Below are positions 21,816 to 51,293 of a stretch of 64,000 nucleotides of DNA, piece after piece (the stretch's first letter is position 1; every line of letters starts with the position of its first letter). The position numbers were made by a program, and so were the translations under genes. This DNA comes from Eledone cirrhosa. Its lineage: Eukaryota. Location: assembly GCA_964016885.1 (NCBI GenBank), contig OZ024743.1:62620001-62684000 (forward strand), written 5' to 3'. The notes under the pieces were generated by a model. That model was not told the origin of the DNA. It saw only the letters and a program-made list of their open reading frames with translations, and made no database searches.

Positions 21816-21866
21816 AGGAAAAAGTCTGACCCCACGGCAGAGCTCAAGCCTTTTCTGAGGCTATTA
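21816..21866 (-). mobile_element. Remnant of the hammerhead-element family seen at 34844 and 49664
   Basis: taggaaaaagtctgaccccacggcagagctcaagcc matches the terminal arm at 34844-34880 and lies between TA/CA tracts. Confidence 0.75.
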
Positions 21867-29493: not shown

Positions 29494-29551
29494 ATACCTG
29501 ATGATATCACCGGATTCATACGGAACCCGGTCATTGAAATGATCATAGTAT
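29494..29551 (+). ncRNA. Type I hammerhead ribozyme
   Basis: atac-CUGAUGA-[accgg..ttc/gaa..ccggt stem II]-GAAA-tgatca-UA-gtat. Stem III is the palindrome atgatcat, the triplet is AUA, and aataaa follows. Confidence 0.8.
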
Positions 29552-30402
29552 AATAAACTTTTCAAGCATTTACACCAGTCCAACCTCCTGTTATTTTATT
29601 TATAATAATTAACTCAGTATTAGCACCACCAACTACACAAACGAAGGCGGGTGAACTGCACTGCGTTGAGTACTCTCTATAATATTACATCAAGATTGAC
29701 CATACGGAATGACCAATTCTATCGAGTGGTGAACCAACAAACCTAAATAAATATATATTTATATGCAGAGGTTATATTTAATTTGTTGGGATTCAACAAG
29801 CTTAAACATTTTTATAACTGATATAAAGCACAATTATCTCCACTATCCAGCGAATTTCAACCATTGAGGTTGTCTTTTTTCCGGGTGTCAATATTTATTT
29901 ATAAAACAAATCTGTATTTTATCTGATGAAAGCGCACCATAATTTACCTTGGTCGCCTATGAAATATATATAATAAAATAATTATGTTTTATAAATATAG
30001 TTTCCATTTATTAATATATTGTATATATATACATACACACAAATATATACGCACCCATATATGTACACACAAACACACACACATATAAATATGTATACAC
30101 ATAAATACAAACACAAAAGGCTCTATATGTATACGCACATACATATATAGACATACATATCATATCCATAGATGCATGTATATATATATATATATATATA
30201 TACATATGCATACATATATTAATATGTACAAACCATTGGGAAGTAGTTCAAGGGCATAAATAAATAAATAAGATTTAAAAAATTCAAAAAATATATAAGA
30301 AAATAAAAATAAAAATAAAGCCATAAAGGGACGTGTTGACAACGAAGGGTGGGGTGGATAATAAAATATAAATACAAACAACGTAAAAATAAACAAAAGA
30401 TC

Positions 30403-34843: not shown

Positions 34844-35033
34844 ATAGGGAAAAGTATGACCCCGACGGCAGAGCTCAAGCTGTTTCGATGGCTTTTTCCA
34901 GAAATAGCCGTCGAAACGACTTGAGCTCTGCCGTCGGGGTCATACTTTTTCCTATTTCCCACTCTACTACCCTAAGTATTGAGTACTCTGGTGCGTTATG
35001 GTCAAACTGGTTCCTTACCACAATTCCTTTGTT
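34844..35033 (+). mobile_element. Truncated hammerhead-family element with a terminal palindrome, in (TA)n
   Basis: 34844-34955 is an imperfect palindrome containing gccgtcGAAAcgacttgagctctgccGTCggggt. The tail is homologous to 49664-49745. Confidence 0.85.
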
Positions 35034-35535
35034 ATATATATACATACAAAAGATACACACACACATGCACACATACATGTATATATGTATAAATACAAAT
35101 ATATGTGTATGTACACATATGCCTGCCTGCATATGCGCCCACATACAACCATATATGAGTACACTTAAAAACATAGTGGGTATGTAAGGACAGGGGGTGG
35201 GTATAACTGAAATCAAATAATATAAAAAAATTTAGATGAACAGGTGAGTGAGAAAAGGGGTGTATAACTTGTGGTAGAGAGTAAGTGTTTGTGAAGAGAT
35301 CTGGATAAGGGTATATAGTTAAAAAGTGATCTGGGTAAAGGTAGAGTACAGGATGAAGGTGGTAGGTGTGTAATGTGTTAAAGGTATGGTAGAAAATAGG
35401 GGGGTGTTATAAGTCAAATGAAAAAAATATTGATAAAGATGAGGGAGAAAAAAATGTATATATTGGTAGAAAGTATGTATTCATAAGGTGATGATATTGG
35501 TAGTGAGTGGAAGGCGTGATATGTAAAGTGGAAGC

Positions 35536-37100: not shown

Positions 37101-37513
37101 TTTGCTATTATATATGTATGTATATATAGAGAGAAAGAAAAATATGTACCTTGTATATATGCAATATATTGTATTCTCATGGATATATGGTTCTTCCTTT
37201 CCCTCTATATATACATATATCTTTTCATTTGAATTATTATAGCTCTGGAAAAACGTGTATTGAGAAGCACAAAAATCAAGCATACTAGATGTTTTGTTAC
37301 CTTAAATTTGTGTATAATATATATGTGTATGTGTGTGTCCTAATAACTGACAGACTACCCATCCCAAGGCGCCTGGGGAAATAAACAGGTGACAGTCTTC
37401 TTGTGTATGTATGTCTATATATATATATATATACACACACATACACAAGACGACTGTCTCCTGTTTATATATATATATATATATATATATAACATTAAAT
37501 AAAAAATCGATTG

Positions 37514-49471: not shown

Positions 49472-49756
49472 TTAATTTTTTTTTTTTTTTTTTCTAAATT
49501 ATATCCTGCTAAATTACACAAACTCACACACAAACATACTCACTTTATGAGATGAGTGATTATTCATATGAATCTCCAACTGTCTTGTAAGAAACCTGCT
49601 ACATGTATTGAATACTCTTGACTTTCATTTGTAACTGAAAAATACATATATATATATATATATAACGAAGGAAATGTGGTAAGGAACCAGGTGGACCATA
49701 ACGCACCAAAGTACTCAATACTTAGGGTAGTAGAGTGGGTAATAGGAACAAGTAAG

Positions 49757-49850
49757 ACCCCGACAGCTGAGCTCAAGCCGTTTCGACGGCTAATTCTGTA
49801 CTGAATGAAAATTTATTCTGGTATTTAAATAGCCGAACTTATCAAGGGGT
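49757..49850 (-). ncRNA. Type I hammerhead ribozyme, U3-A8 core, long stem II loop (minus-strand copy)
   Basis: Reverse-complement copy of 50969-51062 with one GC-to-GU change in stem III. Confidence 0.78.
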
Positions 49851-50548
49851 AATTCCATATATGGTCAAAGAGATAATCACCAGGATTGGTCACATCACAA
49901 GTTAGTAGTAAATCTGTGATGGCAAGTTGGTGGGGGAAGGGGTAGCTAAACCTGCCGGTAGGAGAAAAAGGGAGAGGGGGTGGAGTAGACCCATTCATGC
50001 GTTGGTAGTGCCGGCTACAGCTGGGTGTGAGGTCAAAGAGGATACTGGGGAGGAGGTCGAAACGGTAAGTAGAACAATGAAAGGTAAAACTATAAAAGGT
50101 ACTGAGAGAGAAAAAAAATAAGCAAAATCTGGTTACTAAGACATAAGTCTCTCGCTATTGCTAGGCTAAAGAAATACATAAATAAATAAATAAATAAACA
50201 AATACGTGAATAAAAGAATAGATAAATAAATTTAAAAACAATGTATATATATATATATAATGTAGAATAAAAAAATAAATAATAATAATAGAAATAAACT
50301 AGGTGGGACGGAAATAAAGGGACCCTTATACGAGGTATAAGTGCGTGTATCGTACGGTAACGGGTCAACAAAGGGGGGGGGGGGAAGAATACTAAAGAGA
50401 CTACCACGAAAATAATAAAGGTTTCTACCCCAATCACAGGGCCGGCAACCACCCAGTGTAAGAAAGTAAACTAGTACGAGAATATAATAATTATTTCCGT
50501 CCCACCTAGTTTATTTCTATTATTATTATTTATTTTTTTATTCTACAT

Positions 50549-50580
<32 letters not shown>

Positions 50581-50968
50581 TTTATTTATCTATTCTTTTA
50601 TTCACGTATTTGTTTGTTTATTTATTTATGTATTTCTTTAGCCTAGCAATAGCGAGAGACTTATGTCTTAGTAACCAGATTTTGCTTTTTTTTTTTCTCT
50701 CTCAGTACCTTTTATAGTTTTACCTTTCATTGTTCTACTTACCGTTTCGACCTCCTCCCCCTCCCCCTCCCCAGTATCCTCTTTGACCTCACACCCAGCT
50801 GTAGCTGGCACTATCTACGCATGAATGGGTCTACTCCACCCCCTCTCCCTTTTTCTCCTACCGGCAGGTTTAGCTACCCCTTCCCCCACCAACTTGCCAT
50901 CACAGATTTACTACTAACTTGTGATGTGACCAATCCTGGTGATTATCTCTTTGACCATATATGGAATT

Positions 50969-51062
50969 ACCCCTTGATAAGTTCGGCTATTTAAATACCA
51001 GAATAAATTTTCATTCAGTACAGAATTAGCCGTCGAAACGGCTTGAGCTCAGCCGTCGGGGT
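50969..51062 (+). ncRNA. Type I hammerhead ribozyme, U3-A8 core, long stem II loop
   Basis: acccc-UUGAUAA-gttcggcta...tagccgtc-GAAA-cggct(tgagctc)agccg-UC-ggggt. Stem I is 5 bp, stem III is 6 bp with a palindromic loop, and the triplet is GUC. Confidence 0.8.
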
Positions 51063-51099
51063 CTTACTTGTTCCTATATATATATATATATATATATAA

Positions 51100-51288
51100 A
51101 ACGAAGGAAATGTGGTAAGGAACCAGGTGGACCATAACGCACCAAAGTACTCAATACTTGAGGTAGTAGAGTGGGTAATAGGAACCAGTAAGACCCCGAC
51201 AGCTGAGCTCAAGCCGTTTCGACGGCTAATTCAGTCCAGAATTAGCCGTCGAAACGGCTTGAGCTCAGCTGTCGGGGTCTTACTGGTT

Positions 51289-51293
<5 letters not shown>
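51100..51293 (-). mobile_element. Short copy of the same element with a terminal palindrome
   Basis: 51178-51293 has ~55-bp arms around a 6-nt spacer. The tail matches 49664-49745. Confidence 0.9.

Follow-up and report, generated by a model that had tools for sequence, protein, structure and literature searches.

A terminal-repeat hammerhead of type I with a U3-A8 core in a (TA)n-inserted Penelope-like element of Eledone cirrhosa, likely to cleave a minority of the element's RNA

Introduction

A 64,000-nucleotide stretch of the Eledone cirrhosa genome (GCA_964016885.1, contig OZ024743.1, positions 62,620,001 to 62,684,000, here called the window) contains at 50969-51062 a motif that resembles a hammerhead ribozyme. 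The locus raises the questions of which element carries this motif and whether it cleaves RNA in vivo. Hammerheads with a U3-A8 core have been described for Penelope-like elements (PLEs), with about 1,300 hits in the Cercyon elements of Schistosoma in the part of Cervera and De la Pena (2014, PMC4209133) consulted here. Both the class of motif and its U3-A8 core have been described before, so that the finding as first worded is an ordinary one. The role of PLE hammerheads is nevertheless called unclear in the consulted part of PMC8557442, and the present family is very large and young and likely keeps a DNA record of RNA cleavage and of the cap site. Its natural core variants (U3-A8, U3.G8, C3-G8 and C3.A8) occur on a fold that is stable as a monomer, which makes the cleavage question directly testable.

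Results

Structure and folding of the hammerhead motif

The plus strand at 50969-51062 forms a type-I hammerhead with a U3-A8 core, as judged from the sequence, the folding of an identical copy and the comparison of subfamilies. The predicted cleavage site is 51057|51058, i.e., between C17 and G1.1. The motif consists of the following parts:

50969-50973 with 51058-51062, plus strand: stem I (sequence, fold)
50974-50980, plus strand: core U3 U4 G5 A6 U7 A8 A9, UUGAUAA (sequence)
50984-50989 with 51027-51032, plus strand: the 6 bp of stem II that follow G10.1-C11.1 and a 2x1 internal loop (sequence, fold)
50990-51026, plus strand: loop II, 37 nt, AT-rich (sequence)
51035-51038, plus strand: GAAA (sequence)
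51038-51043 with 51051-51056, plus strand: stem III, 6 bp (sequence, fold)
51044-51050, plus strand: loop of stem III, 7 nt, with the palindrome GAGCUC, kept across subfamilies and a predicted dimer interface
51056-51057, plus strand: U16.1-C17 (sequence)
50963-51074, plus strand: extended stem I, with a distal helix of 50963-50967 and 51070-51074 (MFE fold)

The distal part of stem I, which the earlier note had overlooked, finishes exactly at the end of the insertion (51074). Otherwise the note's description of the motif was borne out by sequence and folding: the U3-A8 hammerhead with a UUGAUAA core, the 6-bp stem III with a palindromic gagctc loop, the mismatch near the base of stem II, which is the 2x1 internal loop after G10.1-C11.1, and the long AT-rich loop II, which had been put at about 35 nt. 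In the identical read-through copy L012, the hammerhead fold was dominant in the ensemble with pair probabilities of 0.62-0.99 for stems I-III, and the fold energy was ordinary (z = -1.4 compared to 200 shuffles). Three helices surround the core in the folded copy and stem I is the open one, which defines type I. The core conforms to the hammerhead consensus N3 U4 G5 A6 N7 N8 A9, G12 A13 A14, A15.1-U16.1 and H17, with positions 3 and 8 paired. A switch-like alternative hairpin of the 3' strand of stem II with the 5' strand of stem III was ruled out by its probability of 0.01 in the ensemble.

The GAGCUC homoduplex was calculated at -30.7 kcal/mol compared to 2 x -7.1 kcal/mol for separate hairpins, so that the dimer is preferred by about 16 kcal/mol over two hairpins. 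This preference makes cleavage as a dimer possible, a mode which has been described for other PLE hammerheads (PMC6765202, consulted in part).

The comparison with Rfam proposed in the earlier note yielded no hammerhead match, neither at E ≤ 1 over the whole window nor at E ≤ 10 over 50900-51100 (201 nt). The miRNA matches returned by Rfam in the window are TA hairpins. Such sub-threshold matches also fell on 37381-37468, a near-perfect 88-nt hairpin around a TA run, which may be a short fold-back insert of another element. At 29494-29560 on the plus strand, a CUGAUGA...GAAA pattern was noticed, in which stem I has 4 bp and stem III is replaced by a palindrome of 6 nt; from its sequence, it could be a minimal hammerhead with C3-G8 that belongs to an unrelated family, or a chance occurrence.

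Insertions of the family in the window

The earlier note had counted five pieces of the family in the window. All of these pieces exist, but they are not five ribozymes, as only those at 49.8 and 51.0 kb are complete. They are distributed as follows:

50491-51074, plus strand: right arm of a PLE insertion, with a 5'-truncated 3' UTR and the hammerhead, 92% to the unit of locus L033
49659-50488, minus strand: left, inverted arm of the same insertion, with about 720 nt of 3' UTR, a complete hammerhead and a tail of about 100 nt
49850-49757, minus strand: the complete hammerhead of the left arm
51100-51291, both strands: separate short fold-back insertion of subfamily A', with the 3' half of the ribozyme only
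34846-35038, no strand assigned: short fold-back insertion of subfamily D type, with the 3' half only
21816-21863, minus strand: lone, decayed arm with the 3' half, lying within a TA run (21.8 kb)

The two complete hammerheads thus sit in a single inverted insertion, 49659-51074, one in each arm. The right arm terminates within a (TA)n run at +17 from the cut, and in the left arm a single C>U change makes a G.U pair in stem III. In the insertion at 51100-51291, the tail arm on the minus strand (51100-51242) and the short arm on the plus strand (51229-51291) meet in loop II; like the insert at 34.9 kb, it contains the 3' half without the UUGAUAA core.

The window also contains repeats of other kinds. 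From position 1 to about 20400 it is occupied by a satellite-like tandem array of 51 copies of a unit of about 395 bp, which are 94-100% alike and show a repeating order of unit lengths. Inverted pairs of SINE-like interspersed repeats of 170-205 nt are present at 51342-51546/53747-53951, 56642-56831/57999-58188 and 45054-45221/48202-48369.

The carrier is a Penelope-like retrotransposon

The motif is almost certainly a terminal-repeat (pLTR) hammerhead of a PLE rather than part of a stand-alone family. At locus L033, 3.7-kb units are arranged head to tail in the order ribozyme, tail of about 100 nt, ORF, 3' UTR and ribozyme; both ORFs at this locus are broken. The hammerhead lies about 1.2 kb downstream of an ORF for reverse transcriptase (RT) and GIY-YIG endonuclease and about 150 nt upstream of the ORF of the next unit. 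The translated ORF contains the RT motifs FDIESYY and YRDD, a Cys-rich linker and the VIY/YIG of a C-terminal GIY-YIG domain. In the ESM Atlas, the protein falls with RVT_1/GIY-YIG clusters at 0.95-0.97; its model (pLDDT 83) matched RTs and telomerases in a fold search, and the best 120 of its 912 relatives were 38-56% identical. Pfam scans and PDB sequence searches gave no name for the ORF.

The element has the hallmarks of an EN+ PLE, namely a single ORF for RT and C-terminal GIY-YIG and a hammerhead in the pLTR. The layout agrees as well, with partial tandems serving as pLTRs, an inverted 5'-truncated copy and an optional tail, and this includes the insertion at 49659-51074. An inverted second copy of the ribozyme was found upstream in 11 of 14 long loci, ten of them with the tail. 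The target is (TA)n: TA flanks both sides in 27 of 30 insertions and follows the tail in 97 of 100. A first look with a 146-nt region gave 1,659 candidates in the 3.0-Gb genome, and 17 of the 40 candidates scored were identical. By its Cys-rich linker, the element may be Neptune-like. According to the parts of the sources consulted, a Cys-rich linker is also present in Nematis (PMC8557442), and a PLE layout matching that of the present element has been described (PMC8557442, PMC3846280).

The overlooked ribozyme-bearing family envisaged in the earlier note could be a stand-alone one of the SINE, MITE or retrozyme kind. Such a family would account for the fact that most copies are short, non-coding and palindromic, and for one tandem array of 274-bp units derived from the 5' region of the element (L451-455). 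However, the hairpin junctions vary from copy to copy, and therefore the hairpins arose independently and not from a hairpin master. Moreover, the long copies continue into the PLE ORF, and the short copies and the 274-bp array lack the catalytic core. A stand-alone family is therefore highly improbable, having been largely refuted by the sequence continuity with the PLE ORF. The element is also no non-LTR retrozyme, which would consist of short non-coding tandem units with a whole hammerhead in each.

Abundance, subfamilies and variation of the core

Genome-wide, 49,918 exact matches to the 3' half of the ribozyme were found compared to 3,981 to the 5' core, the two counts coming from differing search patterns. 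Most family members are, by their sequence, half-ribozymes. The earlier note's proposal of an abundant, overlooked family thus stands with respect to abundance and in that Rfam misses the family, but not with respect to novelty, as the family is of the known kind of PLE pLTR hammerheads.

Among the first 100 of the 3,981 core matches, which were obtained with a pattern that fixes all core bases other than those at variable positions, 65 had U3-A8, 4 U3.G8 and 31 C3.A8. Three older copies (L391-393) had C3-G8. Across the compared subfamilies, N7 can be any of the four bases and the only other change of the core is at positions 3 and 8; U4, G5, A6, A9, G12-A15.1 and U16.1-C17 are unchanged. Loop II, in contrast, has diverged almost totally between subfamilies except for a YTAGT/TCAGT motif. 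The GAGCUC palindrome is conserved, whereas stem III varies in its sixth pair, which is subfamily-specific and U-A in 5 of 14 aligned representatives.

The covariation of stems by which the earlier note wished to judge the family did not reach significance: the score of the 14 representatives was equalled by 39 of 500 shuffles, though single compensatory changes exist. One pair of stem II has switched from G-C to A-U, and stems I and III showed no compensatory change among these representatives. Young subfamilies with a C3.A8 mismatch (L045-L064, L309-L316) represent a natural core mutant. Subfamily B is mostly of this type (6 of 8 where the core and tail lists intersect), and the C3.A8 subfamily has been amplified widely.

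Copies ending at the predicted cleavage site

If the RNA of the element is cleaved, some copies might end at G1.1. The 3' ends of copies fall sharply at two distances from the cut, +17/20 and +97/100, and a copy usually comprises a pair of arms lying head to head within a TA run. Of 294 arms, 138 ended at +20 and 137 at +100; these positions include a 3-nt match to the TA target, and the same ends had in part served to select the loci. The 5' ends were determined for 100 unselected tail arms, drawn from 2,561 in genomic order. Six were located at 0/-1, 6 at -5 to -20, 79 at -25 to -46 and 9 beyond 190, and 4 were scored at -53/-54, which by eye extend further.

Arm ends near the cut were then tallied by hand at two-arm junctions, using the first 100 rows each of 189 (subfamily A), 215 (B) and 239 (A') and keeping only the 30, 29 and 41 junctions, respectively, with non-matching spacer bases, so that microhomology and blunt junctions were left aside. 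Zero-spacer CCCC|GGGG junctions were excluded because a 2-nt CG microhomology could account for them. G1.1 was the end of 45 of 60 arms in A, 41 of 58 in B and 60 of 82 in A', i.e., of 146 of 200 unambiguous near-cut ends. The others included 17 at +2, and the upstream positions together accounted for 12, of which 2 were at -1. Since G1.1 opens a run of four Gs, calls of +1 and +2 are blurred. A strict script applied to the first 30 A' loci placed 27 of 42 arm ends at G1.1. These tallies replaced count controls at -1 (72 matches) and +2 (76 matches), because the latter were mostly CCCC/GGGG palindromes and G-run deletions. Single arms fused straight to the flank also begin at G1.1 (L181, L329, L332, L335), so processing of a palindrome is not required, and L437 has three G1.1 ends within one insertion. 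The spacers between arms are mostly A/T, which is what run-off additions would be expected to give. The spike was weaker in subfamily D, where about 8 of 80 junctions had both arms at G1.1.

Judged from these ends, copies that start at G1.1 quite probably record cleavage of the RNA by the ribozyme in vivo. Such copies are few, with 4-7 of 100 tail arms of subfamily A and about 1-7% of arms overall. Their share was about 3% in A and about 0.8% in B, as counted with patterns that are not length-matched. The lower share in B fits a reduced cleavage or a cleavage in trans, which it would not prove.

Subfamily B, mostly C3.A8, still has the G1.1 spike and provides a natural-mutant control. One tail variant is tied to U3-A8 (4 of 4 U3-type compared to 0 of 6 C3-type B tails). 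Contrary to expectation, this variant was not enriched in the cut-ended B copies (5 of 39 compared to 4 of 30 in the background). Therefore either the mismatch is tolerated, or cleavage occurs in trans, or the spike does not reflect ribozyme chemistry.

The last of these options would hold if the fold served only as a signal for protein binding and RT initiation, with a largely inactive ribozyme, and if the G1.1 ends resulted from RT stalling or end joining at the G4 run beside stem III. The wide amplification of the C3.A8 subfamily with the same G1.1 spike would be in line with this, as would the fact that distal stem I ends just where the first RT start site is located. For PAc, the Poseidon element of Anolis, hammerhead mutations were without effect on insertion in vitro and no RNA-seq ends at the cut are reported in the consulted part of PMC11167929. 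However, ends at C17 (-1) would be expected if RT stalled at the stem III base, and the unambiguous ends were 146 at +1 compared to 2 at -1. In addition, the position of the cut was set in advance by the hammerhead rule, and the catalytic 5' core is conserved except for N7 and positions 3 and 8, though it is missing from most copies and distant from the RT start sites. We therefore regard an inactive ribozyme as unlikely.

The long copies bear on the question of whether cleavage is obligatory. The first 30 of 69 places at which the tail continues into the ORF contained 18 long units. Fifteen of these were preceded by a complete ribozyme with a variable length of upstream sequence; the other three began at -75, at -45 and within the tail, and none at the cut. 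From the 15 units that follow an intact ribozyme, we conclude that the ribozyme of productive templates is either uncut or re-ligated. Re-ligation after a pair of cuts spaced by one unit could provide the latter, yielding a unit-length RNA circle as template for every long or tandem copy; a rolling-circle model for PLEs has been proposed (PMC4209133, consulted in part). Although the RT start sites lie 17-100 nt downstream of the cut, long copies extend across it, in L033 three times, and a circle would give the observed predominance of intact ribozymes with variable upstream length and the absence of starts at the cut. The same picture is, however, obtained from the read-through RNA of a tandem donor without a circle, and the C3.A8 subfamily has been amplified well. 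Obligatory cleavage via circles is accordingly quite improbable, and somewhat less credible than an inactive ribozyme.

Two further features of junctions were observed. At L437:1392-1757 and also in L427, L430, L431, L436 and L447, RT apparently ran off at the 5' end of the RNA and jumped to +190 to +320; in L437 this happened at G1.1. In subfamily B, the spacers between arms often contain 4-8 nt copied from nearby sequence, which we presume to resemble polymerase-theta end joining.

A predicted transcription start within loop II

Most 5' ends of short copies are located in loop II, where the following elements were assigned:

51011-51019, plus strand: two overlapping initiator-like motifs, with A at 51013 corresponding to -45 and A at 51017 to -41 (5'-end pile-up of short copies)
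50988-50997, plus strand: putative TATA-like run starting 29 nt upstream of -41, without counterpart in subfamilies C and E

These data suggest that the promoter of the element likely initiates inside the long loop II, with a predicted capped start. Among 52 unambiguous arm ends, 14 were at -40/-41 and none beyond -45. Both edges, -40/-41 and -45, coincide with the A of an initiator-like motif. An extra 5' G is expected from reverse transcription of the cap, as known from work on LINE-1. The untemplated purine 5' of -41 was G in 86 of the first 100 of 3,880 matches, part of which excess at -42 can derive from the partner arm. At two-arm junctions with both arms reaching -41 (50 loci), the extra purine was G in 20 cases and A in 4. 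The exact ends in loop II are blurred because a near-palindrome at the same place also promotes joining. Initiator-like motifs in pLTRs have been noted before (PMC3846280 and PMC2377424, both consulted in part).

Proposed mechanism

We consider it likely that the motif acts as a type-I U3-A8 pLTR hammerhead of a (TA)n PLE which in vivo cuts a minor fraction of the element's RNA, with the promoter likely located in loop II. The endonuclease would nick both strands of a TA run (twin priming), and RT would prime internally at two sites on the element RNA, as reported in vitro for PAc (PMC11167929, consulted in part). RT would then continue until it runs off at whichever 5' end of the RNA it encounters. 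A capped start at -41/-45 would result in the abundant half-ribozyme hairpins that make up most copies, an end at G1.1 formed by the ribozyme in the shortest inserts of few copies, and read-through RNA whose ribozyme is uncut or re-ligated in long and tandem copies. RNA from the internal start would not be cleaved in cis, because the 5' strand of stem I, the core and the 5' strand of stem II are missing. Cleavage would thus be confined to read-through RNA or to RNA pairing with the 5' half of another copy, and for this reason it would mainly trim tandem and read-through RNA and would not be needed for each insertion.

A more far-reaching version, which we hold to be possible but doubtful, is a swapped bimolecular hammerhead. 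Here, too, the promoter would be in loop II and transcripts would be half-hammerheads, with the 5' half coming from 3.7 kb downstream or from a second RNA docked via the GAGCUC palindrome; both ends would be cut, and a unit-length circle would template the long and tandem copies. If this were true, tens of thousands of short copies would record the cap site as well as cleavage in vivo. If cleavage occurs in trans, the cut-ended copies of the C3.A8 subfamily would also be explained.

Comparison with known systems

All comparisons below refer to the parts of the cited sources that were consulted. The element shares with the pLTR hammerheads of EN+ PLEs (PMC4209133) the type-I topology, the pLTR location, the U3-A8 core and a short helix I, the long helix II with G10.1-C11.1 and the palindrome in helix III, and also thousands of mostly truncated copies and head-to-head pairs. 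In the animal PLE hammerheads of that study, helix III is absent or very short and loop II is short, though its supplement may hold similar variants, whereas the Eledone cirrhosa element has a helix III of 5-6 bp with a 6-nt palindrome, a loop II of about 37 nt and a distal stem I. Moreover, loop II here likely holds the start site, unlike in those animal PLE motifs. A large helix III has been reported for fungal and protist PLEs (PMC4209133). In the literature consulted, we found no read-out of cleavage based on truncations, no start site in loop II and, for EN+ PLEs of animals, no palindromic stem III that is stable as a monomer, whereby supplements may hold similar variants, and no useful account of natural C3/A8 cores.

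With PAc (Frangieh et al., 2024, PMC11167929), the element has in common the two internal RT start sites 3' of the hammerhead, which delimit an optional tail, an AT-rich target cut on both strands and insertions most of which read through the ribozyme. It differs from PAc in its tail, which is about 80 nt long and located before the ORF. PAc has a C3-G8 core and no reads ending at the cut in the consulted part of that study, whereas genomic copies of the present element do end there. A C-terminal GIY-YIG domain that is separated from the RT by a Cys-rich linker, insertions in tandem and inverted form and a bias for microsatellites are likewise found in PLEs of the Neptune/Nematis type (Craig et al., 2021, PMC8557442).

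Non-LTR retrozymes (PMC7229834; bioRxiv 10.64898/2026.07.22.740005) share the type-I hammerhead and the PLE origin, and the U.U mismatch at the base of helix II is also present in the axolotl retrozyme HHR_Amex2 (PMC7229834). Retrozymes consist of short tandem units with a whole ribozyme each, in contrast to the inverted half-ribozymes and the coding 3.7-kb unit found here. One locus (L451-L455, G000:C3:214145138-214149254) lacks the catalytic core and is built from tandem 274-bp units that span about -62 to +210 of the element, a retrozyme-like layout.
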